DNA of 44,879 bases from Candidatus Gastranaerophilales bacterium (GCA_021205645.1 JAJPXE010000114.1:1-44879); one strand, 5' to 3'; shown: positions 4,949-44,879, counted from the first letter of the stretch. A program made the numbers and translations. The notes: generated by a model not told the origin, from the sequence alone.

Positions 4949-6916
4949 TTGGCTAAACAAAAGAAGTTACAGCAGTACATTTTTAAGATAAACTCAACTT
5001 TGCTGGCTAGAAACAATTGGGACTATTATATCTCGTTGGAACGAGCCAGAAAAATACCCGGCATGGTTGTGTCGCTGGCAGATTCTCAAATACTCTCGTG
5101 GATAAATGAGCTGAATGGTATGGAAGATTATGACGAGAAAGCCAGAGAGGTAAAGGCGCAGATTCAGAGAATTAAGCGCCAGCCCAGCAGCCCAGAGAAT
5201 AAAATTAAGATTTCAAGTCTATATAAGCAGCTATATCAACTTCAGTTTAAAGAAGACTATGTTTGTGTGGTTATGGACAAGAAATCTGATTATAAACGAG
5301 CAAATCAGGGGTTTAAAATCAACGGGATTGAGTATAAACGGCTGATTTGTACCACAAATGGGGTGAAAACCTCCTCCGTGGTATATGTGAGTGTGCGGCT
5401 GCACCAGATTTTACGGGATAGGATTGACAATGGCAGAAATATGGAAACGCCACTCGTCCCCGCAAAACTGGGGGCTTACGAGTCCCTGGTTGCCAGCGCT
5501 TCACTCCCCGTGAGTTGGCCTAGACCACCGGATTCTAAAATTCCGGGCGGCATTATTGTGGTGAAGGATTGTGAAACGCATTTTAAAGCGGATTTAATAA
5601 ATATTGATACGAGCAAAGATGGGGCGGAGCCAACAGTTGAGTTTGCGCCTAATCAAGACGTGAAGAACAACTGCTCGGATGGCTGCTCTATGATGCTGCC
5701 GTCACTGTCGAGAAGATGGAACGGCGAGCTGAATGGGGATTTTGAGGATACACTCAGCGGGTGTAATTTACGATGCGCCTGGACAAAGGGTATGACATTC
5801 ACGTTTGATTTTATTGAGTTCGCAGAAAAAATCGTTGGAGCATCTGATGAATGCCCTGAAAAATATCTGATTACAGATGTTTGGGGGCAGCAGAGAGATA
5901 TTCGGGATGCTGAGTTGATTTTGACTGAGAGCCAGTTGAAGTTGTGGGCTTGCTATGACTCGTGGGAAGATTATTTTGAGAAATGCCTGAAGAATGGGTA
6001 TACGATACGGGTAGTTAAGACGGCCCCGCATGAGTTAGATGATGTGAGACAGACTAATTACCAATATTTGCAAGTTTTTGAACTTTCTGATGACGATATT
6101 GAAGATTTAATAGCCCCAACTGTAAATGAGATTAAGGACATTACGGGGTTAGACCCACAAAAGAGCATTGTTTATTTATGCGGGAAGGGGTTAAATGAGA
6201 AGACTGTTGCGTATGCAGACCCGTGTGCCAGGGCGATTATGGTAGATGAAAATGCGATAAATGATGCCTATATTCGCTCGAAAATCAGCAAAATGATAAG
6301 CACTCGGATACGAGAGGCTAAGATTGGGGTTCTTGATGTACATAGTAATTTTCAGATTATTTCTGGAGATTTATATGCGCTTTGCGAGAGTATGTTTGGG
6401 CTTGAGGTGTATGGGCTGCTGAAGGCTGGCGAAATTTATAGCAAGTATTGGCGAGATGAAAATGTAGAAGGCGTTTTGTGTTTTAGATCGCCCATGAGCA
6501 ATCGTTGGTCGGTGGTTCGGCAGAATATTTCTTATGATGATGAGGCTGCTTATTGGTTTAGGTATATAGATTGCTGTATGGTTGTAAATGGTTGGGATAT
6601 GATGCTTTCAAGTCTCAACGGGGCTGATATGGACGGCGATATTATATATTCAACTAATAATTTAGTTTTGATGAATAATCAAGAAAATCTTCCTCCGTTG
6701 AGTTGTGCGCAAAGTGCAGCTAAAAAAGTGATGGTTGCAGAAGATGATGTAGTTGAATCTAATTTAAATGGTTTCGGCAGTAAAATCGGACAAATTACGA
6801 ACAGAATTACGGCTATTACGAGTTTAATGGCGAATTATGAGCCAGGGAGCTTGGAATATGAAACGCTGGAGAGGAGAACCCAAATGGGGCAAAAAATTCA
6901 GCAGGATGAAATTGAT
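4949..6916 (+). CDS. YonO-like single-subunit two-barrel RNA polymerase, exon 1
   Basis: CFRSPMSNRWSVV...(39 aa)...LNGADMDGDIIYS matches the R.P...(spacer)...DxDGD catalytic-loop pattern of YonO and cellular RdRP-type polymerases. TTG start after GAGGTGGTG. The ORF runs on into the intron to a stop at 6976. Confidence 0.65.
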
Positions 6917-7254
6917 TATTATGGTCACTTTGGGCGGCAACGTTCATTGAAAAATGTGGTGAACCTACAGATGTAGGGTGTGGATTCAACGGGAAGTAGC
7001 ACTAGGAAATGAGTGTGAGTGAATCTGCTAACTGGGGACAGTTAAGTTTTGTATAGCAAAATATGCCAATCCAGTGCCAATAAATGGGTCAAACGACTAT
7101 CCCATAGGCTGTGAAATTCGGCAACAGGAGTAGGGGCGTGGTGAAATTCCACGCTGGGTGAGAACCCCTCAAATCGAAGCGCCACACTCCGCTTTTGCGG
7201 ATGAAGATATAGTCTATCCCCCTAAAAAGTATCGGGAAACCGAGGGTATTAGAG
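6917..7254 (+). mobile_element. group I intron (ORF-less) in the RNA polymerase gene
   Basis: R-like element GGTCAAACGACTATCCC (P7 half GACTAT at 7095-7100). S-like element AAGATATAGTCT (ATAGTC at 7209-7214). Frame shifts between flanking ORFs. Proposed P1 is TGAT/GTCA with U at -1 (6916) and omega-G at 7254. Boundaries are good to a few nt at best. Confidence 0.65.
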
Positions 7255-8079
7255 AAAGCCAAGGGAATTATCCCAACACCAATGCCGGTTGAGTGGTACG
7301 TTTACAGTGCAAACCGGATAAAACCGGATGATTCAGAGGAAGAAAAGGAGAAAAAACGATTAAATCAACGTATTTGTGCGCATAAAAAGCCATATTTCTT
7401 CGGCTACAATTATCAGTCGCTCAAGCGCGAATATGACCAATGCGTGGCCGAAATGGATGCAAAATTACAAAATTTATATCAAAAAACGCTACGAGAGCTG
7501 CAAAATTCGGACAATTTAACGCCCGACGAAGAAAAGGCGTTAAGTGTATGCCAGCGACAGTTGCCGCTTGACTGTTCGCCCTCAACAATGAATCGGATTT
7601 GCTGGGCGATTGAGCGTCATTTCGACAAAACAGAACTGCCGTCAGCCAGCGAGTTTGATTATTCCATATATAAGAGCGGATGTGAATACAGTGCTGAGGA
7701 CGCCGCCAGCATTAAACAGGTATGCGCAGAGTATCAAAAAAGTATTAAGTTAGCCCAAAATGAGGCGTCTGGCAATGCAAATGTCGAGCCAATTGATAAG
7801 CGGCAGCTTTTACAGTGTTTGCAGGAAAAATGCGAAAGCATCTGCCCAAACAGCACAGAGTTGTGTGAAATTTTGCTTGATTTATGTTATTCAGATGGAG
7901 CCAGCAAGGGCATTGTGTGGGAGTTGTGCGGAGATGACATAGTAGAGAACCTATTGCGGAAGACCAATTACAAAATAACATACCCAGAACGTGTAAAGTC
8001 TGGTGGGTTCTGGTGCTGCGGCGCACAATTCATTTCAAAGACTATAACACTTGATGAGGAGGTGTGTTATTTTGATTGA
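7255..8079 (+). CDS. YonO-like RNA polymerase, exon 2
   Basis: Frame is open only from 7213, right after the S element, and has no SD or start of its own before M at 7282. The junction would read ...QQDEID|KAKGIIPTPMPVEW. Confidence 0.6.
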   Translation, partial: KAKGIIPTPMPVEWYVYSANRIKPDDSEEEKEKKRLNQRICAHKKPYFFGYNYQSLKREYDQCVAEMDAKLQNLYQKTLRELQNSDNLTPDEEKALSVCQRQLPLDCSPSTMNRICWAIERHFDKTELPSASEFDYSIYKSGCEYSAEDAASIKQVCAEYQKSIKLAQNEASGNANVEPIDKRQLLQCLQEKCESICPNSTELCEILLDLCYSDGASKGIVWELCGDDIVENLLRKTNYKITYPERVKSGGFWCCGAQFISKTITLDEEVCYFD

Positions 8080-21796: not shown

Positions 21797-22144
21797 AAGA
21801 AGATTAGTTCGTTGCATACGGAAACGGTGCAATGTATTTCTTCGGATAAGCTGGGAACTCCTGAGAGCCACAACGCTACAGCGGAAAGATGAAAAATGTT
21901 TATATGCGACAGCCTGAAAAGTTTGTGGATTGGACAATCAGCCGGGAAGCGGCGAATAGCTGCGCCCTCAACGACTAGAGCTGTGATGCTCGTAGGGGCA
22001 AGTGCCTCGAAGTGAAGAACTCCTAAGTTTTGTGCTGATGTATGGCACAAAATATGGTGAATGATATAGTCTATGCTTACATGAAAGTGTGAGAAAGGGT
22101 GTGAATAAACACTACCCCTTGCGCGGATTAACGCCCCGCGTGAG
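21797..22144 (+). mobile_element. group I intron (ORF-less) in connector gene
   Basis: GGACAATCAGCCGGGAAGC segment. R-like CTCAACGACTAGAG (GACTA 21973-21977). S-like TGATATAGTCTATG (TAGTC 22067-22071). Proposed P1 is AATT/GATT with U at 21796 and omega-G at 22144. Length 348 nt keeps the frame. Boundaries approximate. Confidence 0.6.
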
Positions 22145-22274
22145 TAATATTACAGATTACAGTCAAGCTAATCACCTCGCAGAGCTGCGAGAGTTAAAAA
22201 ATGAAAACTTGAGAAGAATGAACCGTTTGCATAACTATTATACTTACACTAATAGTTCATATTTTAGTAGTTAG
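22145..22274 (+). CDS. head-tail connector/adaptor-like protein, exon 2
   Basis: Same frame as exon 1. The junction would read ...GGKEEKF|NITDYSQANHLAELRELKNENLRRMN. No SD or start of its own. Confidence 0.5.
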
Positions 22275-22286
22275 GCGGTGCTTTAA

Positions 22287-22595
22287 ATGTATTTTAAATA
22301 CGGCGAAGTATCGTCTAAGCAGATAAAACAAGAGAAAGATTATTTTCAATCAGCAATTTTTAAACTTTTGCCGTACAAACAGGAAAAATACGAATACCTG
22401 GACGGATATTTTGAGTCGCTGCTGCAAAGGCTGGGCGGCTTTAATACTTTATCGGGGAATCAGCCCGTAGTTGTAACCATTATGAGTTTGCTGGAGTTTG
22501 CAAGGACAGAGAACGACTTTGTGAAGTATCGCAAGGCTGTTCTTGATGCCTGTGGGCTTGTGCAGCAGATACAGGATGGTGATTCCTATGTATGA
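22287..22595 (+). CDS. hypothetical neck-module protein (102 aa)
   Basis: ATG after TAGGCGGTG. ATGTATGA overlap with the next gene. Confidence 0.5.
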   Translation: MYFKYGEVSSKQIKQEKDYFQSAIFKLLPYKQEKYEYLDGYFESLLQRLGGFNTLSGNQPVVVTIMSLLEFARTENDFVKYRKAVLDACGLVQQIQDGDSYV

Positions 22596-31000: not shown

Positions 31001-32476
31001 TGATATATACAGTTATCAGAACGCACTTGAGGGTTCACTTCAAAGAAAAAATAGCAATACGTTCCAGTGGATAGTTCAAGATGCTGACGAGGCTCTTGTA
31101 GAGGTGACTGCGGTTCTTGGGAAACTCGGAGATATTACGATTACAAAGAATCCAATTGAAGATATATTTTCCAGTGACTACAGTTCAAAATGGTTGAAGA
31201 ACATCCAGTCCGAGATGACTAAAACTATTAACGAGCTTGCTCAGTCTATGACAAAATTATCAAAGATGGACGTTGGTACGCAGCAGTTTACTGAATTGGA
31301 AAATCGAATTTCTGAATTGCGAGTTAGACTTTCAGACTTACAGGGGCAGTTGAATAATAGCACTTCTATCGGAACTGGAAATATCGAGAGCCAGCTTAAT
31401 AAGATATTCTCTAATTTTGGAGTAAGCGCAAGCCAGGAGATTGAAAAAGTAAAATCGTCATTTAATAGTTTGAGTGATGAAGCAAAGTCTAGTCTAAACG
31501 AGTTAGAGCAAAATGTTGATGGCGTTGAGGCAGATATTAAAGCCTTAGACGATGCGTTTGAAAATTTCAAATCTGCGCAAACTTTTGACGAGAAAACTGC
31601 GGCGGCGCAAGAGCTTGCAGAGGCTATATCCAAGACAACTGCTGAAGTCAAAGTTTTAAAAACGGCGGAGGATACATTAAATTCATCACAAAGTTTGTCT
31701 ACTGATATTCAGACATGGATGGATGAAAACCAAAAGGCTGCCAAGCAATTTGGGGACAGGCTGGATGAGCTGCAAGATAAATTAAAAAATAATATTGACC
31801 CGGCTAAACTAAAAGAGTGTGCGCAAGAGTTTGAAAATATCCAAGCTGAGGCTAAAAGTGCCAATTTGGTTACAAGCGATTTTGCTAAGTCGGCGGGCAA
31901 ACTTGCCCTTCAGCTTGCTGGCCTTGATACAACTTATGAAGTATTCCAAAAAATAGTTCAGGTCGTGCGCGAAGGCATTGAGGTTGTAACCGAGCTTGAT
32001 TCTGCTATGGCACAGTTAAAGATTGTTACTGGGGCCACAGACAGTGAGATGACGCAGTTCTTAGAGGAATCTATCTCGCTGGCGAAAGAGCTTGGGCAGA
32101 GTGTCAGTGACATATTGGGGACTATTGAAACGTTCTCTCGTTTGGGATACGACCTCGAAGAAGCCTCTACATTAACTGAATTTGCCAGTATTTTATCTAA
32201 TGTAGCAGATGTTGACATTGATGATGCGACGACTGGTCTAACTTCAATTGTTAAGGCATATGGGTATGCTGCTGAGGATGCCGAGCAGGTGTCCGATATT
32301 TTAATCACAGTTGGACAAAATTACGCAATTAGCGCGGAAGAAATTATGACTGCCTTGGAGAAATCTGGTTCTGCGTTGAGCGCTACGGGACTTTCTCTGG
32401 AGGAGTCTGTTGCGTTGTTGGCGGCTGCGAATAGCTCAATTCAAGATGCCTCCAGCGTGGGCACTGCGATGAAGAC
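28077..32476 (+). CDS. tail tape measure protein, exon 1
   Basis: GGGAGGTGAG SD. About 1,466 codons of coiled-coil-like sequence ending in a TMP-core-like ...SSVGTAMKT. The ORF runs a few codons into the intron (stop at 32510). Confidence 0.75.
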
Positions 32477-33040
32477 AGGATTTTGTCTTTATGTACAGAA
32501 ATGTGCATAGTGAACATATTTAACTGCGGGTAATGGGTAAAGTCTTGCACCACAATAGCGGGGAAACCACGCTATGAAGGGACGAAAGTAGAAACAACGC
32601 AAGAATGGCATATGGCTAAAAGCCTAAGTGCTTGTACAATCCCTGTTCCGCAACTAAGCTCCCTAACGTACCCCGTGGAACACACGGTACTTGAGTCGAG
32701 GGAGAAAGTTCAACGACCATTCCCATGTAGGGGTTGCAGGGAAGAATAAAGGTGGAAACCCTGAATACTGCAACCATCAGAAGTAGGGCGCAATCGCAAA
32801 TGGCGTGGGTGAAAACCCCTTAAATCGAAAAGGTATGCTTGCTGCTCAAATAGAACGTGAGTAAGAAATGGTCTTATCTCATATGAGAATATGAGTATTA
32901 TAAAGCCAAGAATGTTAAGTAGAGGCCCACGGTAAAGTGGGGTGCCACTTTTCTTGATGCGGGTATCTATTTGTGGTACAATAAAAACAGTAATAGGCTT
33001 TGTAGTAGATGTGTGTTGCGAACACATTTAAAAATGTATG
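32477..33040 (+). mobile_element. group I intron 1 of TMP gene (ORF-less)
   Basis: R-like GTTCAACGACCATTCCC (GACCAT 32715-32720) pairs with S-like AAGAAATGGTCT (ATGGTC 32868-32873). Clearly homologous to TMP intron 2. P1 candidate is AAGAC (32472-32476) / GTCTT (32485-32489). Ends ...TATG. Boundaries are good to a few nt. Confidence 0.7.
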
Positions 33041-33415
33041 AGTTTCGGCACGAATTCGTGGAGCCACCACTGAACTAGAGGAGATGGGAGAAGAAACCGA
33101 GGGACTGGCAGATGGCCTTTCAAAATATAATGATGAAATTATGGCACTCACTGGCGTCTCTATTCTCAAAGAAGGAACAACAAACGAGTACAAAGACCTT
33201 TATGATATTTTCTATGAATTATCTCAAATTTGGGATACATTGTCTGATACCGCACAATCTCGTGTGTCGGAGATTCTTGGCGGCACAAGGCAATTAAGTG
33301 TAACTTCCAGCTTAATCAATAATTTCAGTGATGCTGAAGGAGCGCTTACAGATGCTTTGGAATCTAGTGGCACTGCACTAGCTTCCAATGAGGTGTATAT
33401 GGACACCATCGAGGC
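33041..33415 (+). CDS. tail tape measure protein, exon 2
   Basis: Frame opens at 33042 with no SD. The junction gives ...AMKT|VSARIRGATTELEEMGEETEGL, a TMP-core-like motif. Ends ...NEVYMDTIEA. Confidence 0.7.
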
Positions 33416-35688
33416 AGTGTGTTTTTTGCCTCTTTGTATAGAAATATGCAAATTAGGACACATCTAAATGCAGGTAAAGGATAAGAGCCTTGCACCATAA
33501 TAACAGGGAAACCATGTTATGACGGGGCGAAAGCAGAAACAACGCAAGGATGGCATATGGTCAAAAACCTAAGTGTTATAGTAATTCCTGTTCATGCAGC
33601 GAAATACCCTAACGTTATTCACAGACCATGTGATAGTTAGTCGAGGGTATACGTTCACAGACTATCCCCATATCGGGGCCGCAAAAATAAAATAAAGGTG
33701 GAAATCCTGAATATTGCGGCCATTAGGAGTACGGCGCAAGCAAAGGCGCGGGAGAATCCCCCATAATCGGAAAAGGTGTGCTTGCTGTTCTAAGGAACGT
33801 GAGTAAGAAATAGTCGAGTCTCATATGAGAATATGAGGGTTATTAACTTTAAATAAAGGAACTATGGTATGGAAGCAGAAATTTATGAGCAAATAATTGC
33901 AGATTATAAAAACGGCACATCTTTTAAAGAAATAGGAGAAAAATACCAATATGATGTAAAATATCTTAAAAACAAGTTGGCGCAAGACGGCTACTATATT
34001 CCAGGTAAATATTTGCGATTTACAGAAGCCGAAATTAGTTTGATAAACCAATATTATCCAGATGGAGATTTAGACGAGCTGTTCCAAAAAATTCCAAATC
34101 ATACTCCAGAGGCGATAATATTAAAGGCTAAAAAGATGGAGACTGATTCTGGGGAATATAGTAGCTTAGAGAAAATGAAGCATCTTATTTCTGGTAAACC
34201 GTATACAATGGATGAAAGCACATTTAATCCAGATGATGGAAGTTTTTGTGCAATTACGCAAGATGGGTATAAAGTTCTAATTCGTAGAACAACGTTGAAT
34301 AAAAAGAAACTCCCAGACTTTTTCAATGTAAAGAACCCGTATACAGTGGACAATATTCGGCACTATACAGAATTGAATGGAATTGAAACAGAGCTGTTGT
34401 CAAATAGTTATTTTGGGCAAAATGAAAAACTTGATTGGAAATGTGGTAGATGTGGAGTGCATTTCACAGCCTCTTGGAAGCAATTCCTACGAGGAAAACG
34501 GCTATGTGACGCTTGCACCAAAAAAGCGACCAGAGAAAAACAGCAACTTGATATGGACTATGTAATTAAGGTTTTGTCTGAATGTGGGTACATATTAAAA
34601 GAATATAATGAAGATGTGCCAATTTCTAAACAGTCTATTGTCTTGGAGGATAACGAGGGATACAAATATGAGGCAATATGGAATCATGTTTTAGACGGAA
34701 TCAAGCCGCATTGTTTTGACCCGGCAAATAAGTTTACGATTGAGAACATTAATCATTATCTTTCACGCACGGGGCGCTCCGATTACTCTTGTATCTCGGA
34801 GGTATATACTGGAAATCATTCTCCATTGGCATTTGTACATAAACCATGTGGGACAATTTTCAAGTCTTCTTTGGTTGCCATGCAGGGAAAAGAGATAGAA
34901 GGTGCGGAGGAGAGACGATGGAAAACTTGTCCAAATTGCTTTCCACGGAGAATTGAATCACTTCATGCCTCAGTCCTCAAACAGGTGTTCTTACATGAGT
35001 ATCCAGACACAGTTATAGAAGACCAGTCATGTAGAAATCCAAATAGCGGACTTCCGCTCCCAACCGACATAGTAAATCATAGGTTGAAAATTGCCGTTGA
35101 GATTCAAAGTCAATACCATGACGGAGAACGTCAGGCAATAAAAGATGCGATTAAAAGAGAGTTTTGGCTCAACAAAGGATACAAATTTTATGGCCCAGAT
35201 ATTCGTGATTATTCAGTGCTTGGTATTGTGCAAGTATTTTTTCCTAGTATTAAAGAACTGCCGACATATTTAAATTATAATTATTCGTGTAGTGCAAGTA
35301 CCAAAATTGCTGAAGATTTGTTGAATGCAGGGCTTACGATAGGTGAAGTTGCGGATGCAATGGATGTGAAATATTCTACAATCTATGACATAGTACAATC
35401 AAAACGGATTGTTCTTCCTGCTAATTATACAAGAAGGCCAAAAAACGTAAAGGCGATTGTTCAGTTGGACGAAAATGGAGAATATTTAAATACCTTTTCG
35501 TCTTTCCTGGATATAGAACGAAATGGTTATAACAGGTATTCTATACGCAAAAAACTGAAATCTGGAGAGCATCTTTCTCAAGGCTTTTATTGGATTTTTG
35601 AGAAAGATTATAAACAAGGAGTAGTAGAAATATAATTTTAAAGTTAATAACCGGCTAGACGTTGCGAATCTAGCTAAATATGAAAATG
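33416..35688 (+). mobile_element. group I intron 2 of TMP gene (carries homing endonuclease ORF)
   Basis: R-like CACAGACTATCCCC (GACTAT 33660-33665) pairs with S-like AAGAAATAGTCG (ATAGTC 33810-33815). Long stretches are near-identical to intron 1. P1 candidate is GAGGC (33411-33415) / GCCTC (33428-33432). Ends ...AAAATG (35688). Confidence 0.7.
33869..35635 (+). CDS. intron-encoded putative homing endonuclease (PD-(D/E)XK / Vsr-like core with HTH and Zn-ribbon modules)
   Basis: Sits after P7' of intron 2. Candidate nuclease core is LPLPTDIVNHRLKIAVEIQSQYHDG...KREFWLNKGYKF. Two repeated modules each end in a Cys cluster (CGRCG...CDAC and C...CPNC). HTH-like ends. Confidence 0.55.
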   Translation: MEAEIYEQIIADYKNGTSFKEIGEKYQYDVKYLKNKLAQDGYYIPGKYLRFTEAEISLINQYYPDGDLDELFQKIPNHTPEAIILKAKKMETDSGEYSSLEKMKHLISGKPYTMDESTFNPDDGSFCAITQDGYKVLIRRTTLNKKKLPDFFNVKNPYTVDNIRHYTELNGIETELLSNSYFGQNEKLDWKCGRCGVHFTASWKQFLRGKRLCDACTKKATREKQQLDMDYVIKVLSECGYILKEYNEDVPISKQSIVLEDNEGYKYEAIWNHVLDGIKPHCFDPANKFTIENINHYLSRTGRSDYSCISEVYTGNHSPLAFVHKPCGTIFKSSLVAMQGKEIEGAEERRWKTCPNCFPRRIESLHASVLKQVFLHEYPDTVIEDQSCRNPNSGLPLPTDIVNHRLKIAVEIQSQYHDGERQAIKDAIKREFWLNKGYKFYGPDIRDYSVLGIVQVFFPSIKELPTYLNYNYSCSASTKIAEDLLNAGLTIGEVADAMDVKYSTIYDIVQSKRIVLPANYTRRPKNVKAIVQLDENGEYLNTFSSFLDIERNGYNRYSIRKKLKSGEHLSQGFYWIFEKDYKQGVVEI

Positions 35689-35868
35689 AAAAACAAGCCA
35701 ATTCAGTGCTGCTGTTCAAGAACTCGCATCTGATGCTCTTGACACAGACCTAATTAAAAATATCGTAGACCTTGGAACGGACTTAATTGAAGTCCTAGAT
35801 GCAATCATAGATAATGTCGGAATGCTTGGCGTCGCAATTGGCGCTGTTGGTATTGCGGCATTCGCAAA
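35689..35868 (+). CDS. tail tape measure protein, exon 3 (3' end uncertain, 35866-35878)
   Basis: Reads KTSQFSAAVQELASDALDTDLIKNIVDLGTDLIEVLDAIIDNVGMLGVAIGAVGIAAFAK, a typical TMP core continuation. The frame hits TGA at 35879 inside sequence resembling the 5' ends of introns 1 and 2. Confidence 0.6.
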
Positions 35869-36326
35869 GAGTTTTGTTTGACCCAAAAATATGATGAGTC
35901 TCCAAATTCATCACGCATTGGGTGACAAATCCGCAAAAAGCGGAGACAAACGTGGACGAGGCTTGGCGTTGCGCCGCAGGCATAATTAACCTGCGGCTAC
36001 ACTCCACGCACAAGTCCATGAGTAGTTCTCTTTTAAAACAAAAACTAAGGGGTAAATGCTGGAAACACCGGTTAAACCGTTCTGCCTGAATTTTTTAGGA
36101 GCGAAAGCAGAAACAAGTGAACGGCTGGCGCAAGGGAATACATAAGCCTAAACGCTACGCGACGCGAATAGCGGAGCAGATGGTCAATCAGCAGGACGGC
36201 ATGAGCTGTAAAAGCGAGTGCAATCCTCAGAGACTACCCACCCTTCGGGCTGCTACGCATATACAAACGCGGCAACCTGTAATGTATAGTCCAAATGCGG
36301 AAAAACAGGCAGCAAAGCAAAAAAAC

Positions 36327-36362
36327 GGGAAGATGCCCCCGCAGTAACGAGAACATCTTCCC
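36327..36362 (-). terminator. rho-independent terminator (minus strand)
   Basis: Minus strand reads GGGAAGATG...CATCTTCCC followed by GTTTTTTT. Confidence 0.6.
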
Positions 36363-36368
36363 TGCGCA

Positions 36369-36455
36369 CTAGGCGCAGAAGCGGTACCTGACCGAAGTCC
36401 GTACCTGGATACGAGCCTTAACTCGTACCTTTACAGTACACTTAACTTTAGCCAT
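36369..36455 (-). CDS. 28-codon highly basic mini-ORF (may be non-coding)
   Basis: Minus strand has an AAAGGAGGTGG SD, 6 nt, then ATG. Translates MAKVKCTVKVRVKARIQVRTSVRYRFCA. Lies between a consensus promoter and a terminator, but also inside intron-structured sequence. Confidence 0.3.
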   Translation of the reverse strand: MAKVKCTVKVRVKARIQVRTSVRYRFCA

Positions 36456-36551
36456 GTGTACCACCTCCTTTCTAGGCCGTCAGGGAAAGAGGGTGTCAAC
36501 GACTTTCCCATTTCGGCTCTAAAAAGCAAAGCAAAAGGTGTTACTACACAT

Positions 36552-36580
36552 ATTATATACGGGCTTGGTATTTTTGTCAA
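36552..36580 (-). promoter_or_regulatory. perfect-consensus sigma-70 promoter (minus strand), firing antisense into the intron core
   Basis: Minus strand reads TTGACA (36580-36575), exactly 17 nt, TATAAT (36557-36552). Confidence 0.6.
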
Positions 36581-36723
36581 TGCGCGTTGCTTTGTTACCT
36601 TAATTATATTCTGAGAACCTATCTCTCGATTGTGGTTCCCCTGGCGCGGGGATGATGGGGGGCGCCATTAACATATTTTATATTCATTTTAGAAATAGTA
36701 CAAGAAATATGTCGTAAAAAGGC

Positions 36724-36752
36724 TTGACAACATCCTTGCGTAGATTTATACT
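36724..36752 (+). promoter_or_regulatory. sigma-70-type promoter for the cassette + strand genes
   Basis: TTGACA (36724-36729), 17 nt, TATACT (36747-36752). Lies 40 nt upstream of the GGAGGGAAATATG start. Confidence 0.6.
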
Positions 36753-36792
36753 TTTAATAAAAATACGGGAGGTGTTGTTTTTGGAGGGAAAT

Positions 36793-37104
36793 ATGCAGAG
36801 AAAACCAAACATCCCACCAGATGGTTTGGCGCGTAAACGACGCAAATCTGGAAGGCCGTTGTATAGGGGTATAATACATTACACTGGAGACAAAAACATT
36901 TCTAATAGTAATGGTTCTTTTATTGTTTATACAGGGCAATATAAAGGTGTAAAGCATTTTAATAAAAAATTGGTAATCAGATGGGAAACAAAGAAGCCTA
37001 TCACTAATGGGCTACAGGCAGCATCTGATGTACCGAAAGAGGGAGCGGGCAGACCTATTTTACCAAAGCCTGCCCCAACAAAAAGGGACGGTGATAAAAA
37101 ATAG
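36793..37104 (+). CDS. small basic protein with AT-hook-like GRP motifs (103 aa)
   Basis: GGAGGG SD. ARKRRKSGRPLYRG and EGAGRPILPKP resemble AT-hook cores. Lys-rich tail. Confidence 0.55.
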   Translation: MQRKPNIPPDGLARKRRKSGRPLYRGIIHYTGDKNISNSNGSFIVYTGQYKGVKHFNKKLVIRWETKKPITNGLQAASDVPKEGAGRPILPKPAPTKRDGDKK

Positions 37105-37229
37105 ATGCACTTTTAGTTTGTATACAGGGTATAGCCATTATTATAGATGGGCTTATACCGGGACTTATATGCTGCGAAGTCTTTTTATTCCTTAGCTCTA
37201 AAAAAGTCTCTCATTTAGAATTAAGGTTA

Positions 37230-37754
37230 TTGGCATATATTATTATTACGAGAGCAATTAAGTCGTTGATGGCGTTATTACATGGCTTTATTTTTGCGCA
37301 ATGGCATCCAGGGGATTTACAAAAAATTATAGTATATTACTTTTTTGCTGTTATTCTTGGGGTTATGTCCGCAATTATTTGGAAAAGTGATAAGTTCTCC
37401 CGTGCTTTGTTGAAATTTTCCAGGAAGACAACAGACTCTGATATCTTCAATGGGCTACTTGATTTTGATGGGGGCACGGGGGTAAATGTTGTGTTGAAAA
37501 ATGGAGATATTATAAATGGCTCTGTTTTTCGAGTAGAAGAAAACGGAAATGATTCTTGGATAGCATTACATGATTATGATATATATCAACATGATGGTCT
37601 TGAAGTTCATTCTTCTGATTTTAAAGAGGAAGGAATTGTATTGATAAAGCGGAATGATATTTTAAGGATTCATTATACCTACACCCCAAATACTAAAATG
37701 TCAGATGCGCTCGTGCAACAAAGGGGACGGCGCATAGAAAAAAATAAAAAATAA
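37230..37754 (+). CDS. membrane-anchored protein of unknown function (174 aa)
   Basis: Two N-terminal hydrophobic helices (SLMALLHGFIFAQW, IIVYYFFAVILGVMSAIIW) and a beta-rich C-terminal domain. TTG start with a weak SD, so the start is uncertain. Confidence 0.45.
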   Translation: MAYIIITRAIKSLMALLHGFIFAQWHPGDLQKIIVYYFFAVILGVMSAIIWKSDKFSRALLKFSRKTTDSDIFNGLLDFDGGTGVNVVLKNGDIINGSVFRVEENGNDSWIALHDYDIYQHDGLEVHSSDFKEEGIVLIKRNDILRIHYTYTPNTKMSDALVQQRGRRIEKNKK

Positions 37755-37790
37755 CAAAACCGAGCAAGTATTCACGCCTGCTCGGTTTTA
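37755..37790. terminator. bidirectional rho-independent terminator between convergent cassette genes
   Basis: CCGAGCA / TGCTCGG stem flanked by an A-run on the left (AACAAAA) and a T-run on the right (TTTTA). Confidence 0.65.
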
Positions 37791-37848
37791 ATGTTTGCTT
37801 ATTTATTTCGTATTAGAATTTATAACCGCAATCTTGGCATTGGTGGGG

Positions 37849-39174
37849 CTAGTATCGTTCGATGGAGTCGATGTATGTTTCTGGCTGAATGTTAATATTG
37901 TAGTCGTGGATGAAGTTATAATCATCAAGCCATTTATAAAATGCCTTATCATTTTCAAATTTCATCCCATTTATATCCATGCGCCTTTCGAGAAAATGAA
38001 GTACCTCTGTTTTGGTCATAATGCCATCATAGATTGCATGAGCTAAAATAGAACGCCGTGTTCGCGCAGATAGTGCATCTCTTTGCGATACATTATACCC
38101 AAGTTGGTGTAAAACGCTTTCTTCGCTCCAAGAGCTGTATTCCCAATCGTAAAAGCCAGAACCTAGCATTCTTATATCGTTTGCTAGTGGGCCAAGGATA
38201 TTTCGATAATACTCATAGGCGGAATAGCTTAACATCTTTCGTTTACAATAATAGCAATATTCGAGGTCAATTTTCCACTCTTCTCCGCTGTCGTCTTTGA
38301 CGATTGTAGTAACTTGGGTGATTGGATGATGGTGCCTAAAACAGACAATCAAACCTTTGTAAACATATAATGTGTTATTTGGTTCGGGCTGCGGTGGCTC
38401 TGAGAATTGAAATTTGGGACTTGCTTTTATTCTCTGTGGAATTTCTTTTGGTTGCACCGGAGCGGGTCGGTGCTGCACAGCGCAAAGTCGAGCAACTGTT
38501 TCATCACGAGCTTTTAGCTTCATCTTTGGAACAATTTGTAGCGCATCTGGTGTGATTGTGTAGTATATGTCGGCAATAGCCCAATATTCTTTGCCGCTAA
38601 TTATGACAGATTCTCCCGGACATTGAGCATCCATCACGGCAATAATTCTGACCATTTTATTCGGGACTCGGTATACGGGGATAAAATACTTAGCCTTAGA
38701 AAGATATGAATCAAGTTTTCTGGCGTCTTTTAATGTACAAATGCTTCCGAGTGAGACTTTTCTGGTCAGATATTCGTCTTTAGCCGTTTTCGCATCTTCC
38801 CACTCTTTTTGTATACGAGCGTTGCGAGAAATTGGTGCCAGTTCTGGCTTTGGGGCTTCTCTCTTTTGCATCTCGGCTATTTTCTTGCGGAGATAATAAC
38901 GGATTGGGTTTAAGTATTCCTCTCCATCAACTTTCATTTCTGGTATAATTGTCAGTGCTTCAATTGGGAACTCCATCGGCCAGGAAAGCCGCGCATAATA
39001 TTGCCGATGGTTGATTTTGATGATTCTAACTCCAGAGCATTCTTCTTCTACTACAGGTACAACCAATGCCGTTTCAATGTTTTCTTGCACATGGACTACG
39101 AGAAAAAGTGCATCATCAGTCCATACTCCACGGTTTTGCTTGCAAATATCGCCAATAGATGGAGTCTTGTACAT
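37849..39174 (-). CDS. 441-aa protein of unknown function: tandem N-terminal barrel-like repeats, Cys/His cluster, helical C-terminal domain
   Basis: Third gene of the minus-strand operon. The internal repeat SIGDIC...ALVVPVV..C.G.RIIKI....YYA......P.EALTIIPEMKV matches SLGSIC...VRIIAVMDAQCPGESVIISGKEYWA....TPDALQIVPKMKL. Cys/His cluster CFRHHH...CYYC. Confidence 0.6.
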   Translation of the reverse strand: MYKTPSIGDICKQNRGVWTDDALFLVVHVQENIETALVVPVVEEECSGVRIIKINHRQYYARLSWPMEFPIEALTIIPEMKVDGEEYLNPIRYYLRKKIAEMQKREAPKPELAPISRNARIQKEWEDAKTAKDEYLTRKVSLGSICTLKDARKLDSYLSKAKYFIPVYRVPNKMVRIIAVMDAQCPGESVIISGKEYWAIADIYYTITPDALQIVPKMKLKARDETVARLCAVQHRPAPVQPKEIPQRIKASPKFQFSEPPQPEPNNTLYVYKGLIVCFRHHHPITQVTTIVKDDSGEEWKIDLEYCYYCKRKMLSYSAYEYYRNILGPLANDIRMLGSGFYDWEYSSWSEESVLHQLGYNVSQRDALSARTRRSILAHAIYDGIMTKTEVLHFLERRMDINGMKFENDKAFYKWLDDYNFIHDYNINIQPETYIDSIERY

Positions 39175-39202
39175 ATGGAATCACCTTTTTCTGCTTTAGG
39201 TT

Positions 39203-39736
39203 CTACCACTTATATCCGCAATCCTTACACTGGAATTGTGACCTGGCCGACTTGCTGAAAATGCCGAGAGTTGCGACGCCTACGGCCTTGCGAGTGAAAG
39301 AGATGGTCTTGATGTTGGTGGAGCCGCAGGTGGGACAGTGGGGGATATGGGCGCGGCGTTCGTGGAACTTGTAGGTATAATTGTACCAGGTGTCATTGAG
39401 AGGATTGGGTTCTGTATGTTTGGACGGGATAAAGCTAACAGAACAGTTATCTGCCTCAAAGTGTTCTTTAATATACTGAACGTTTTCTTCTTTTATCCCC
39501 CCAAGTATAATACTACCATTCTTGTCAAGTAATTTAGTTGCTTCCGCTTTTTGAATCCCAAAATTTTTTAGGACAGCCACAATAAACGATTTAGCTCCAC
39601 CTATGCTATTTATTGTCATGTCAAATAGATTATTTTCTTTTTCCTGCATAGTGCTAATTGGGTATCCACAATGAATACACACAGAAGATTTATCGCTTAT
39701 TTGCTTCCCGCATTCTGGGCAATTTATAAGCGCCAT
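39203..39736 (-). CDS. double zinc-ribbon protein with central ribosomal L7/L12 C-terminal-domain-like fold
   Basis: CPECG..(8)..CIHCG at the N-terminus and CPTCG...CKDCG at the C-terminus. The centre, FDMTINSIGGAKSFIVAVLKNFGIQKAEATKLLDKNGSIILGGIKEENVQYIKEHFEADNCSVSF, aligns by eye with the L7/L12 CTD. AAGGAGG SD. Confidence 0.6.
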   Translation of the reverse strand: MALINCPECGKQISDKSSVCIHCGYPISTMQEKENNLFDMTINSIGGAKSFIVAVLKNFGIQKAEATKLLDKNGSIILGGIKEENVQYIKEHFEADNCSVSFIPSKHTEPNPLNDTWYNYTYKFHERRAHIPHCPTCGSTNIKTISFTRKAVGVATLGIFSKSARSQFQCKDCGYKW

Positions 39737-39756
39737 ATAATTCCTCCTTGTCTTAT

Positions 39757-40191
39757 TTATAGCCCCAATATATTTTTTCTTTTTGCGTCGTATTCGTCTG
39801 GGGTTATGTACCCGGCATCTTTTAATTCGTCTAGCTCTTTAAGCTCTGCCATCTTATTATTTGCTTTAGGTTGTGTCTTTGGTTGGCTAGATGCAGATTT
39901 TTTCTTGTCACTTCCTAGGCCAATTACTCCTGAAGCGAGTAAAATTACACCAATGACAAGGATAATGGCACCTATAACAATGACAATTTTGTAATTGTCC
40001 AGACGCCCTTCCCAGATTGATATTGTTTTGCGTGAAGAATCACTTGAGCCAAATAATGAGTCCAGCCCAGATTGTGCGCTAATCATATTATTGGCTAAAG
40101 AGTACCTATTATATCCGTAGGCTGTAATTCCACCACCGACGACGGTTGATACGCCGCCAATGATTGCTGCTGTTTTAGATGTAGAAGCCAT
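39757..40191 (-). CDS. membrane protein with C-terminal SHOCT domain
   Basis: Gly-rich hydrophobic N-terminus and a TM helix IVIVIGAIILVIGVILLASGVIGLG. C-terminus MAELKELDELKDAGYITPDEYDAKRKNILGL is a SHOCT signature. TAAGGAGGAAAC SD. Confidence 0.65.
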   Translation of the reverse strand: MASTSKTAAIIGGVSTVVGGGITAYGYNRYSLANNMISAQSGLDSLFGSSDSSRKTISIWEGRLDNYKIVIVIGAIILVIGVILLASGVIGLGSDKKKSASSQPKTQPKANNKMAELKELDELKDAGYITPDEYDAKRKNILGL

Positions 40192-40255
40192 AGTTTCCTC
40201 CTTACGCTTAATGCTATTGTTATTTCTTAGTAATTATTGCATTTACTTTTCTGTA

Positions 40256-40284
40256 ATTTTACCACAACTTTACATAAAAGTCAA
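40256..40284 (-). promoter_or_regulatory. sigma-70-type promoter for the minus-strand operon
   Basis: Minus strand reads TTGACT (40284-40279), 17 nt, TGgTAAAAT (extended -10, hexamer 40261-40256). About 65 nt upstream of the 40191 start. Confidence 0.6.
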
Positions 40285-40321
40285 TCTTCTTCTTGTCTGC
40301 TTTCAAGGAGATAAAAGATGG

Positions 40322-43300
40322 AACAAGTATAGCTGAGAAGGCGCTTCAGGCTTTTAGTACAACGATTGGCAAGGCCAAAGATGCAGAAGTTGATTTTGCC
40401 TCTGGCTTTAGCACTGGTAGTATTGTAAGTTGGGGGACTGCTATTGTTGCCATTATTGCGGCTGTGGTGGTTCAGTATCAACAATATAAACAATCTCTCC
40501 TTGAGGCAGTGCAGGCCGCTGAAGAATCTTTAACTTCTTGGAATGAACAAAACGATTCTCTTGAAGAGTACAAAGAACGTGTTGAGGAACTGAGAACTTC
40601 ATTAGACTCCGGCAATCTCACTGAGGAAGAAGCTTACGATGCTAAGACTGAACTGCTTGAGATTCAAGATGCGCTAAGTGAATCTTATGGAGTTTCTGCC
40701 GACGCACTAAACTTGTTAAACGGTGAGATGAAAACTCAGCTTGAATTAATAGATAGCTTGGGTGTAGCCGAGGCTAATCGAGAATTGACAGCAAATAAAG
40801 AAGGTATTGACGAGGCAACTAAGCAAATGGAGACGTTGCGTAACTACTTCGCAGATGTTGACGCAATGGATGCAGAGACTTTAGATGCAGTACAAAAAAT
40901 TGTAGACAAGTACGACGATTTGTCTTTACTCCAGAATGAGAATGGGACATATAGAATAACATTTACTGGAGATGCTACCCAAGCCACAGAGACTATGGAT
41001 GCTTTGGCTATAGACCTTCGTGCATTAGAAGACGACGTTGGAGAAAACGCCATTCTCGACTCGCTTCTTAGTTATACGTCCGATTCTTACAACGCCGCGA
41101 AAGAAGTTTTGGATACCTATCAGAGCGTTTATGATGAAGCTTGGCTTGCAAAGTTAGTCACCGACACTTCCAAGGTTGCGGACAATCTTTCCGAGGGGCT
41201 TACGCTCCCAGAAGGAGTTACTACTTATTCAGACCTTTACGAGAAATATGCTGAAGCTGTTGAGGACTACAATGAAGCTCTTGAAGATGGAGACGCTTCT
41301 AAAATTAAGGGAGCTAAAGACCAGTTTGACGCTGTAGATACTGTTGTCCAAGACCTGATGGGCGACGACAACATGGGCGGCTACGGTGATTTGTTCAACG
41401 AGATAGCCGACAGCCTTGATACTGCTTCGATTGCCGCACAAGATTTCAACAACGCTTTAAGCGGGGATTCTTTGCAAAGTGCCATAAGTGAAATTGATGG
41501 CTGGAGCGCTGATGAATTAAGCAATCAAATTTTCGACTTAGCTAATGCCAGCAATTCCTTAGTTGACATCTGGAGTTGGGGCGGAGATGAAGTATCCGGT
41601 TCGCTAGTTCAAATTATGGATGCGGCAGAAGAAGCCGGGGTCGTTACCAGTGAAAATGGGCAGTATACAGAGGAGCAAATCAACACGGTTATCAGTCTCC
41701 TTGAATCTCTCGGCTATATTACATCCGATGTTATTGAAAGCTCTGCTCTCTCAGTCGATGACCTTACCACAGCTTACGCTTCTGCCGAAGAAACAGTTGA
41801 GGGCCTAACAACAGCAATGAGCGAATCGGCTTCTGCCACTGGGCTTTCAGCGGACTCAATTAGCTTAGTAGAATCGGCCTTTGAGGGGCTGGACGACTAC
41901 GACGCTGCCGCACTGTTTGAGACAACTGCCAATGGCGTACATTTAAATAGAGAAGAATTAGAGCGGCTGAATGAAGAATACAGAGAGCAAGAGGCTGCAA
42001 AGTATTCAGATACGCTGGCAGACTTGAATGAGCAGTTATATGACGCACAGGCAGCCCTTGAAGCGGCTGGTGATGACCAAGAGGCGTATAATGCGGCGCT
42101 GAGTGACATTTCTTCGATTGAAACGCAAATTCAAGAAGTGCAGTTGTTGCAAGCACAATATGAAGGGCTTACTTCGGCCTACAATGATTTTGTGAATGCA
42201 CAAAGCGCGTCCGATGAACGTGATGCGTATGCAAACATTGGCGACAGTTATGAGGATTTAAATGACCTCATTAACGCCGGATGGGTCGGGGACTCAGAGA
42301 TTACAGAGTATCTTGATTTGTTGATTGCCGCCGATAAACGTACACAGGATAATTATGAAGACTGGAAACTCTTAACAAAAACTATCGAGGGAACCAATTA
42401 CAGCCTGATGGATTTCTTTCAATATGATGATGACTCTGGAGATTTGACTGTAAACGGGCTTGCGAACTTTTTGGACTCTCTGGATGCGTTGTTCGGAGAC
42501 GATATTATTAATATGGCCGAGGATGGCAGCTTCGCGCTTGACCTAACGGGAGAAAAGATTACAGAGGTTGCCGAGGGGCTTGGAACAACCGAGGAATTTC
42601 TTGAGTTAGTCGGTAAGGCCCTTATTGACGCGGGCATTGACGTAAAATTCGACGATGCCGCCGAGAGTTCGTCCACTCTTGCAGATGAAGTTCAGGAAGT
42701 GCAGACAGCTATCGCAGAGACGGCAGATACTGTCCAGGATGCTACTGATTCGTTGCGTGAAATGGGAGAGCTTGACGGCTTTACTTACAACCTCGATACA
42801 GACCTTGAGGGCATTACTGAGCAATTAACTGCCGCCAAAGAAGCCTTGTTGGATGAAAACGGTGAGATTAAGTTTGAAGCGGATACAGATGAGTATCAAG
42901 ACGCTATAACTATTCTTACTGCCCTTATACAAAAACAGCAAGAGCTTGAGAATGCAGACCGCGCTATTGTGCAAGTTGATGTTTCTGAAGCCAGCAGTGA
43001 TGTTGGAGAATTGGCGCGAGATATTCAAACACTCCAGGGCCAGCTTGATAATTATGAGGCCAATCTTAATATTGGTGCCGACACTTCTGATGCAGAAGAA
43101 CGTATCATTCAATATGTTGAAGAAGTTCAGACGCGGCTTGAAAACCTTGACGAGCAAACGGTAATAGACCTTGGGCTTGACGATGAGGATTTCCAGGCGG
43201 CACTTTCTAATGTAGCTAATACAGATATTGAAGCTGGCGCGACAGTTTCTCAGGAAGATTTAGATACTATCCAGGGCAAAATTGATGGAATCAGTGAAGA

Positions 43301-44487
43301 AGCACTAATTTCAGTTGGGCTGGCTGAAGACTCTGCAACAGCAGAGGAAACGCTAGAAGATATCCAAACTACCGTTGAGACGTTAAATGCTACACCAGAT
43401 GTTTCTATCACAGTTACAGTGACGACAAATGGGGCAGAAGAACTCGATAGTGTTCGCGCCGGATTGGAGTCCGTATCTGAATTTAGCGAAACGCAACAAA
43501 CTGCAAGCGGCGTTGTCGAATGGGCAAATGACGCCGGTGAAGTTGAAGAATATGCAGAGGTAGAGAAACAATCCAGCGGCACAGTTGCATGGGTGAATGA
43601 TGCCGCTTTGATAAATGCGTATATCAATCAAATGAAGTATGCCAGTGGCACAGTTGTTTGGTCGAATGATATTTCAAAGGTTAGGACTAGCTTTACTGCC
43701 ACCGGAACCGTGAAGTGGAATAACGCAAGCTCATATCTTGGAACTGCTCATGCGGCTGGTACGGCGGCGGCAAGGGGGAACTGGGGGCTTCCTGAAGACG
43801 AGGAGAATGTTCTCGTGGGGGAGGTAGCACCAGAACTTGTAGTTGACGTTAATTCTGGCCGGTATTATACCGTAGGAAACGATGGGGCAGAATTTGTAAA
43901 CCTACCAAGGAATTCGATCGTGTTCAACCACAAGCAAACCGAGGAAATATTACGTTATGGGCATATTGATTCGCGTGGTCATGCACTGGTTGAAGGAACT
44001 GCTTTGTATAGCGCCTCTGGAAGTTTGCACACAAGTACAAGCAGCACATCCAGTGCGAGTAAAAAATCAAGTAGCTCCAGTAGCAGTAGCTCAAAATCCA
44101 GTTCCAGTTCCAGCTCTAGCAGTTCTTCAAGCTCCAAGAAGTCTAGCAGCTCAAGCAGTTCGTCCTCGGCGGCGGCAGAGGCCGAAATTTATGACTGGAT
44201 AAGTGTTCTCCTTGATAGAATTGAAGCCCAAATTGAGTCTCTTGACCGTACTGCATCGAGCGCATACAAGAACTCTACAACGCGGCTAAATGCAACTCGA
44301 AGTGAAATTTCTGCGATTACGAATGAGATTGCTACACAACAATCTGCGTATGATTATTATATGCAGAAAGCTAATTCGGTTGGCCTGTCGAGCTATTACA
44401 AAAACCTCGTACAAAATGGCGACATTAAGATAACAGAAGTCTCAAGTGAAAGTACACAGGAAAAGATAGATGAGTATACCGAATGGT
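40322..44487 (+). CDS. tail tape measure protein, exon 4 (both ends approximate)
   Basis: Open frame from 40278 with no usable in-frame start. Hydrophobic segment WGTAIVAIIAAVVV followed by about 1,380 codons of acidic coiled-coil. Reads ...KIDEYTEW then TGA (44487-44489) at the start of intron-like sequence. Confidence 0.6.
44031..44170 (+). repeat. poly-Ser/Lys low-complexity tract within TMP exon 4
   Basis: TSTSSTSSASKKSSSSSSSSSKSSSSSSSSSSSSSKKSSSSSSSSS, encoded by mixed AGC/AGT/TCN codons. Confidence 0.8.
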
Positions 44488-44879
44488 GAATTTTTTTGTG
44501 CCCCGTTGCCTATTGTTAGGTGACGGTATTCTATTTAATTGCTGGAATATCCTAAAATTAACCAAACTACAGCGTGAGGATGAAATAAGCCTGGGCGCGA
44601 ATGTTGCGAAAGCAGAAAAAATTGGTTAAATAAGTACATGAGTAAAATCTAAATGCTTATGGGAGAAACGTCTGTGAGAGCAGGCGCTTTTTTTGTGCCC
44701 AAAATGGACAATCAGCAGCGAAGCTTCGAACAGAAGAACGTTCAACGACTATCCCTGAGATGGGAGTAGGGCCGCAAGCGGTTGGCGGCTCGAAAAGGTA
44801 GACTATGTAAATTTGATTTTATTGGCGTTATATTGCGTTACAATAAAAAGGATACGTTTATGTTAGTAGAGAATCAATA
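44488..44879 (+). mobile_element. group I intron 4 of TMP gene (5' part; runs off the window)
   Basis: TTTTTTTGTGCCC start resembles the other TMP introns. GCGAAAGCAGAAAAAATTGG and TGGACAATCAGCAGCGAAGC segments. R-like GTTCAACGACTATCCC (44741-44756). No S partner before the window end. Confidence 0.55.

Follow-up and report, generated by a model that had tools for sequence, protein, structure and literature searches.

A predicted group I intron in a phage tape-measure gene that carries six putative genes behind its ribozyme core

The window analysed here is a 44,879-nucleotide (nt) stretch of DNA from a Candidatus Gastranaerophilales bacterium (GCA_021205645.1 JAJPXE010000114.1:1-44879), and the element in question is a predicted group I intron at 35879-40295, in a gap of a giant gene for a phage tape-measure protein (TMP). 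The region is a large phage's structural module, with terminase, portal and Ant-type anti-repressor genes upstream of the TMP gene. The TMP gene is in pieces (28077-~32476, 33041-~33416, 35689-35878 and 40296-44489), all of which keep long open frames (1466 + 125 + 63 + 1398 amino acids, aa). As an earlier sequence-only reading of the window had stated, the frame ends at TGA 35879-81 and reopens at 40278, from where it stays open to 44489 (listed open reading frame, ORF, of 1398 aa) and is closed there by a further intron. The same reading had found the downstream half to have no in-frame Shine-Dalgarno (SD) sequence and ATG, and this was confirmed, the sole good SD/ATG pair (40307/40318) being out of frame and followed by a stop after four codons. 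The pieces that flank the gap, and the gap itself, are as follows; the 5' boundary of exon 3 was derived from the 3' end of intron 2.

35689-35878, plus strand: TMP exon 3, ending ...AAFAKSFV with a complete codon before the stop (from reading frame and homology to TMPs)
35879-40295, plus strand: predicted group I intron of 4417 nt, beginning with UGA (stop codon) and ending with G40295 (omega-G)
40296-44489, plus strand: TMP exon 4 (SAFKEIKDGTSIAEK...), whose first 8 nt, UCUGCUUU, are the predicted P10 partner of 35937-44

Related TMPs proved continuous across the break. The TMP of Enterocloster phage CB473P3 (1510 aa) aligns colinearly through the junction, and in the IMG/VR relatives L005, L087, L088, L131 and others the frame stays open for >1100-2500 codons beyond the site. 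On these alignments the TMP across the 4.4-kb gap is ancestrally one gene. Stop-codon recoding was ruled out by the long standard-code ORFs throughout the window. A megablast of 35600-40400 against phage genomes gave no match, and a search with exon 4 for close relatives in IMG/VR found none.

A complete group I ribozyme core lies contiguously at 35879-36362, starting at the TMP stop codon. Searching IMG/VR with short conserved strings led to two intron families other than that of introns 1 and 2 of the TMP gene. The profile of family 2 (19 compact introns) matched 36053-36236 (nhmmer E=2.2e-14), and that of family 3, built from nine introns with the window excluded, matched 35871-36297 (nhmmer E=1.6e-44), covering the first intron base to the S element. 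The profile of the intron 1/2 family barely detected the third intron (E=0.68, in the CGAAAG segment only). The resemblance of its 5' end to introns 1 and 2, on which the sequence-only reading had relied, is thus weak, and by these profile matches the third TMP intron belongs to another family. A degenerate intron remnant, suggested by the value of 0.68, was dropped as an explanation once families 2 and 3 matched. The homology claimed for 36098-36125 held up, this being the conserved GCGAAAGCAGAAACAAG...CGCAAGG segment of the group I P5 region. The family-3 core is also present in gut metagenome-assembled genomes (MAGs) assigned to Oscillospiraceae, Ruminococcus and Faecousia.

RNAalifold on the family-3 alignment gave the canonical helices P2-P8, with compensatory changes in 48 of 68 pairs. 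When P1 and P7 are included, the share of alignment cells that pair is 93.1%, versus 34-44% when the partners are slid by 1-3 columns. In this named structure both sides change in 52 of 79 pairs, and none of 500 shuffles reached the observed values; the folding of the intron region likewise surpasses that of shuffled sequences (z=-3.5). The family-conserved R (CCTCAGAGACTACCC, 36227-41) and S (TAATGTATAGTCC, 36281-93) elements lie 45 nt apart, pair locally and are conserved in nine relatives. A P3-P8 core with the P3/P7 pseudoknot and the R/S consensus elements identifies the intron as group I. Its parts, including the guide discussed below, are listed here, with the core placed by profile matches and pair counts.

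35873-35878, plus strand: 5' strand of P1, exon UUUGUU, with U35878 as the splice-site U; 6/6 pairs with 35945-50
35937-35950, plus strand: internal guide, AAAGCGGA (35937-44, P10 partner) followed by GACAAA (35945-50, P1 partner)
35951-36020, plus strand: P2 with an inserted long hairpin; stem 35951-57/36014-20, 7/7 pairs in the window, all seven covarying in the family
36047-36293, plus strand: catalytic core, helices P3-P8
36047-51/36241-45, plus strand: P3, 5/5 pairs in the window
36058-61/36189-92, plus strand: P4, 4/4 pairs in the window
36077-82/36118-23, plus strand: P5, in a shifted register in the window copy
36101-17, plus strand: conserved core segment GCGAAAGCAGAAACAAG
36194-201/36219-26, plus strand: P6, 6/6 pairs in the window
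36232-36/36287-91, plus strand: P7 (R and S halves), 5/5 pairs in the window
36246-56/36269-79, plus strand: P8, 9/10 pairs in the window
36327-36362, unstranded: long hairpin at the P9 position (from alignment with the P9 hairpins of relatives and a terminator scan)

The guide fits both exons. GACAAA pairs with the end of exon 3 through a U35878·G35945 wobble at the splice site, which makes the UGA stop codon the first three bases of the intron. By alignment the guide position is homologous to the guides of L083, L085, L081 and L132. The splice-site U·G, found in 8 of 10 aligned family members, and the covariation of four of the six P1 pairs are what P1 of a group I intron should show. Exon and guide change together across lineages (UUUGUU/GACAAA, UGGCU/GGUCG, UAAGU/GCUUA, UAGAU/GUCUA, UAUCU/GGAUA and UCGAU/GUCGG). 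A first copy of GACAAA (35924-29) was rejected as the guide, the alignment showing the second copy (35945-50) to be the homologous one. For the 3' splice site, we scored every G-preceded position downstream of the core (2031 sites) for pairing with the eight bases 5' of the guide G. The best of the 2031 was 40296, where UCUGCUUU forms eight consecutive pairs; it lies directly after G40295, in frame and 18 nt inside the reopened TMP frame, and so combines the omega-G and the P10 of group I introns. The same blind scan in relatives ranked the in-frame TMP resumption top in L083 and L085 (11 bp each) and in L081 (8 bp); in L132 it gave 7 bp, a score shared with two other sites. P10, too, shows compensatory changes between exon and guide (TCTGCTAT/ATAGTAGA versus TCTGTTAC/GTAACAGA).

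The splice junction is accordingly predicted at 35878/40296 (a slash marks the junction), with ligated letters ...AGTTTTGTT/TCTGCTTTCAAGG and the product ...GIAAFAKSFV/SAFKEIKDGTSIAEK..., that is, ...AAFAKSFV/SAFKEIKDGTS.... Independent support for the 3' site comes from the frame, the omega-G and the exon start TCTGCT common to the window and L083, in which exon 4 likewise begins Ser-Ala. We dropped the junctions 35865/40322 (from the intron 1/2 rule, ..GAC/A ... G/A), 35874/40322, 35878/40308 and 35878/40311 in favour of 35878/40296, because it fits the U·G, the omega-G, the reading frame, P10 and the L083 exon start. The junction that the sequence-only reading had expected, about 35868 to about 40322, was not borne out.

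Between P9 and the 3' splice site lie ~3.9 kb of cargo, with six genes in three or four putative autonomous transcription units on both strands. Their promoters and terminators are consensus matches only (12/12, 11/12 and 10/12; two hairpin terminators).

36369-36580, minus strand: mini transcription unit with a 12/12 promoter (36580-52), a GGAGG ribosome-binding site, ATG 36456 and a 28-codon ORF to 36369
36724-37790, plus strand: unit with an 11/12 promoter (36724-52), ORF 36790-37104 (104 aa), ORF 37230-37754 (174 aa) and a hairpin (37755-90)
37849-39174, minus strand: gene for a 441-aa protein (homologue search)
39203-39736, minus strand: gene for a 177-aa double zinc-ribbon protein (phrog_2546, family match)
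39757-40191, minus strand: gene for a 144-aa membrane protein with a SHOCT domain, the first gene of a three-gene minus-strand operon
40284-40256, minus strand: 10/12, TG-extended promoter of that operon, with -35 TTGACT at 40284-79 and -10 at 40261-56

Promoters, terminators and ORFs on both strands had already been recognised from the sequence, but only five ORFs were counted, the minus-strand mini-unit having been missed. The cargo had also been called AT-richer, which holds at 36.6-37.8 kb (GC 0.34-0.39) and 39.4-40 kb (~0.36) and fails at 38-39.4 kb (0.41-0.46). The promoter of the mini-unit is a perfect TTGACA-17-TATAAT, and its terminator (36362-27, 16-bp stem) coincides with the P9 hairpin, which, with a T-run behind it on the minus strand, looks like an intrinsic terminator of the mini-gene. 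The 28-codon product is basic (MAKVKCTVKVRVKARIQVRTSVRYRFCA) and had no family match in NCBIfam. RNA from this unit would be antisense, and complementary, to the intron RNA and might affect its folding or splicing. The 104-aa and 174-aa plus-strand ORFs had no family matches. The terminator scan called the hairpin behind them (37755-90) on the minus strand only; a U-rich stretch follows it on the plus strand too.

No known domain was found in the 441-aa protein. Its sole homologue, 87% identical (L187, 10001-11326), comes from a Clostridiales MAG (GCA_020860385.1), where its gene is chromosomal and flanked by rpoD and ftsH. Because this single homologue is chromosomal, the gene was acquired from the host, in a recent host-to-phage capture that also points to who the host is. 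The family of the 177-aa zinc-ribbon protein has 481 matches, many with an L7/L12-C-like middle domain. Pfam, PHROGs and PADLOC revealed no transposase, TnpB or recombinase among the five larger cargo proteins, nor did NCBIfam with the 28-aa ORF included; the only trace of an insertion sequence (IS) was a sub-threshold IS1595 zinc-ribbon match. Family searches found no LAGLIDADG, GIY-YIG, HNH, His-Cys or PD-(D/E)xK endonuclease domain in the cargo, and PADLOC, NCBIfam and a PDB sequence search assigned no function to its proteins. Its own promoter and terminator consensus matches, together with content that differs between relatives, would qualify the cargo as a moron.

We consider it likely that 35879-40295 is a single group I intron of 4.4 kb in the TMP gene, with the ribozyme in its first ~480 nt (P1-P9), the cargo behind it, and accessory genes thereby tolerated in an essential gene. 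Late transcription would read the whole region as TMP pre-mRNA; AAAGCGGA-GACAAA would pair with the exon 3 end (P1, U35878·G35945) and with the exon 4 start (8-bp P10), and exons 3 and 4 would be ligated at 35878/40296. The cargo genes would be driven by their own sigma-70-type promoters, independently of the late gene and probably in the lysogen, and the intron would allow accessory genes inside an essential structural gene without destroying it. We infer that the 4.4-kb RNA would be made in one piece and spliced while the cargo promoters fire independently. The sequence-only reading had likewise proposed an accessory cassette with its own promoters inside a group I TMP intron, whose splicing would rejoin the gene, and the proposal is supported by the continuous homologues, the covarying core, the double-matching guide and the lack of a downstream start.

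Several points weigh against it. Splicing itself is an inference. Given the hairpin at 37755-90 and the two minus-strand promoters, the late pre-mRNA must pass the former and meet convergent transcription from the latter. The splice-site U·G is missing in L098 and L100, and in the more distant lineages L101, L126 and L134 P10 reaches only 5-6 bp and is not the top-scoring site. There is some circularity, P10 complementarity having partly chosen the 3' splice site of the window. Unlike its relatives, the window copy has no peripheral P5b hairpin, and its L1 and P2 contain long insertions. Finally, Rfam gave no group I match anywhere in the window, either at the gathering score or at E<=10; this silence on the third gap carries no weight, because the clear-cut introns 1 and 2 were missed too.

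The sequence-only reading had arranged the parts differently, with the core split by the cassette: an R element at 36495-509 would pair across 3.8 kb with an S element AAAGTC at 40277-82 as the two P7 halves, leaving the cassette in a P8-type loop. GTCAACGACTTTCCC does resemble the R element of introns 1 and 2, and GACTTT and AAAGTC are complementary, yet none of the three intron-family profiles matched at 36495-509 or 40277-82, and a complete local R/S pair, conserved in the nine relatives, is already present at 36227-36293. Moreover, a minus-strand promoter that keeps its position in relatives has its -35 box at 40279-84, and 36495-509 sits in the 5' leader of the minus-strand mini-gene. Because the conserved R and S pair locally and the core is contiguous, the cassette is not in a P8-type loop but behind P9, and a split core is scarcely credible. 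As a separate observation, GTCAACGACTTTCCCATTTCGG (36493-36520) resembles the R/P3' segment of the intron 1/2 family at ~21 of 27 bases, although it went undetected by every profile; the cargo may here preserve a fragment of another intron, or the likeness may be fortuitous.

A gene that is split and never spliced would leave the ribozyme a relic, the TMP two polypeptides acting together (~1650 aa to TGA 35879 and >=1398 aa from near TTG 40293), and the cassette an intergenic moron island. The stop codon exactly at the break, an in-frame TTG at 40293 and the promoters and terminators of the cassette all suit this account, as does the fact that splicing is a prediction from sequence. However, no SD precedes TTG 40293 and no start is conserved in any relative, compensatory changes in P1, P10 and the core helices would not be maintained from lineage to lineage in a relic, and the guide fits the distant 3' exon better than any other of the 2031 downstream sites; we regard this explanation as unlikely. 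The awkwardness of a continuous 4.4-kb transcript, with its hairpin terminator and opposing promoters, would be avoided by trans-splicing, with exons 1-3 and the ribozyme on an RNA ending inside the cargo, exon 4 on a separate RNA, and P10, unusually long at 8-11 bp, helping to capture the latter. But no good plus-strand promoter precedes exon 4 (the best, at 39953-81, scores 9/12), no extra complementarity was seen between the two halves, and the same design occurs in relatives with a ~1-kb insert, where cis-splicing suffices, so that trans-splicing seems very unlikely. Neither it nor the two-polypeptide TMP accounts for the covariation and the absent start codon as well as cis-splicing does. 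That foreign DNA in an old intron inactivated the TMP of a now defective prophage is hinted at by the lost P5b, the gained insertions and the gene copied from a host chromosome. Decay of this kind would hardly leave every TMP exon a long open frame and P1 and P10 perfect in the window, and dozens of independent viral contigs whose flanking structural genes are intact share this architecture; we think this explanation very unlikely.

The site recurs among relatives. The TMP frame stops soon after the same K-N-[FLV] motif in 33 of 66 related loci, in 20 of these 33 within two codons. The distance to TMP resumption is 0.75-1.0 kb in most loci, 4.4 kb in the window, 3.7-3.8 kb in L138, L157 and L018, 5.3 kb in L126, 6.7 kb in L134 and 9.3 kb in L029. 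Short versions consist of the ribozyme and a single zinc-ribbon gene, antisense, with its promoter directly at the 3' splice site; long versions have extra genes between P9 and the zinc-ribbon gene, encoding an IrrE/M78 peptidase, DUF3800, GNAT or trypsin-like peptidase. Most introns at this position of the TMP gene carry, antisense and adjoining the 3' splice site, a gene for a small protein that has a zinc ribbon at both its N and its C terminus (for example at 3850-4158 in L015, 13341-13838 in L126, 14575-15234 in L134 and 9300-9830 in L018). In the window the gene of the SHOCT membrane protein intervenes; a promoter at the position of the window's minus-strand operon, next to the splice site, recurs in relatives. 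This steady association suggests that the zinc-ribbon protein serves the element itself, in mobility or maintenance, and is not random cargo.

More generally, we lean towards a group I family fixed at one TMP codon (after K-N-[FLV]) in large phages of gut Clostridia and serving as a cargo platform. A compact core would be followed by 0.3 to ~9 kb of independently, often antisense-transcribed genes, with a zinc-ribbon 'anchor' and variable defence-like, toxin-like or host-derived genes, and a P10 of 8-11 bp would find the distant 3' exon; the intron would be a safe harbour for genes expressed in the lysogen. Two loci on IMG/VR 3300045988 contigs (L026 and L029) differ. Their TMP breaks a few codons later (...KNVGRANHISELSLF, then stop), and a structured non-coding stretch unlike family 3 is followed by ~9 kb of small genes before the TMP resumes. 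One of the small genes encodes a hydrophobic peptide, putatively like a type I toxin, and TTGACA...TATAAT promoter units recur among them. In these two loci the hotspot may hold another type of intron.

Group I introns of bacteria and phages are usually thought to carry nothing or a single homing-endonuclease gene. To our knowledge, the sole exception is the IStron, whose cargo is a transposon. In IStrons such as CdISt1 and BcISt1, a 5' group I ribozyme is fused to a 3' IS200/IS605-type element and the whole is spliced out as a unit (PMC4227781; PMC10690162). Like IStrons, the third TMP intron has its core at the 5' end and kilobases of coding cargo between core and 3' splice site, and both are found in Firmicutes, where splicing renders, or for the TMP intron would render, an intragenic insertion harmless. 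In contrast to IStrons, family searches found no transposase, TnpB or IS ends in its cargo, which consists of variable accessory genes with putative promoters of their own on both strands, and it sits in a homing-like manner at one conserved codon of one phage gene, whereas IStrons are scattered. We rejected IStron identity because no transposase is present. With ORF-bearing phage group I introns, such as intron 2 with its HNH gene, it shares an essential structural gene as its site and coding DNA placed after P9, before a short 3' segment. Those introns, however, hold one sense-strand homing-endonuclease ORF, whereas the third intron has no recognisable endonuclease but six genes, four of them antisense, with predicted internal sigma-70-type promoters and terminators.

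Morons are autonomous promoter-gene-terminator units inserted between phage genes. The cargo resembles them in its own promoter and terminator, its partly lower GC, its variation between related phages and the accessory or defence-like content seen in relatives (IrrE/M78 peptidase, DUF3800, GNAT); unlike morons between genes, it lies inside an essential reading frame, and its tolerance would depend on RNA splicing. Giant organellar group I introns also enclose other genes, as in the hexacoral mitochondrial ND5-717 intron. In both cases, ND5-717 and the TMP intron, an essential gene has a group I intron that encloses several genes with no part in intron mobility, but ND5-717 is mitochondrial and transcribed polycistronically with no individual promoters, while the TMP intron belongs to a bacteriophage and has independent, bidirectional bacterial promoters (by consensus) and strain-variable cargo. 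Group I introns can hold protein and RNA genes and reach up to ~20 kb (PMC4227781). Our literature search found no description of a phage group I intron with several promoter-bearing genes on both strands.

If the intron splices, phage introns could serve as landing sites for accessory islands of several genes that bring promoters of their own on both strands, giving morons and defence genes a new route into an essential structural operon with no polar or disruptive effects. This would also explain many 'fragmented' TMP genes of the gut virome that are annotated as separate genes or defective prophages. RNA engineers would have an interest in a ribozyme that joins exons 4-9 kb apart, apparently with the help of a long P10, and its existence would raise the question of how the late pre-mRNA is transcribed through internal terminators and opposing promoters.

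The window holds at least six group I introns in its 45 kb (6976-7281, 21913-22540, 32477-33040, 33417-35688, 35879-40295 and 44490 to the end), with profile matches beyond the three TMP introns at 7119-7241, 21913-22097 and 44507-44779. The intron at 6976-7281 splits a gene, the ORFs on its two sides (4949-6976 and 7282-8079) both matching phrog_8308. The last one begins immediately behind the exon 4 stop and continues past the end of the window, and the TMP gene therefore has at least four introns and >3050 codons. Introns 1 (32477-33040) and 2 (33417-35688) are ordinary group I introns; intron 1 has no ORF, and intron 2 has a 588-aa HNH endonuclease ORF (phrog_559) after P9. The splice-site U·G wobble is near-universal in group I introns, and C-G in its place would be unusual. 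In the intron 1/2 family (32472-32500 and 33412-33440; L004, L007, L013 and L018) the last exon base is apparently C and pairs with a guide G, as in ..AAGAC/A ... TTGTCTT and ..GAGGC/A ... TGCCTC, with intron ends of the form ...ATG/A; this C was deduced from TMP colinearity and the omega-G rule. Three loci of the same family (L014, L021 and L030) have their ORF in the P6 region and not after P9, so the position of the ORF is not fixed within the family.

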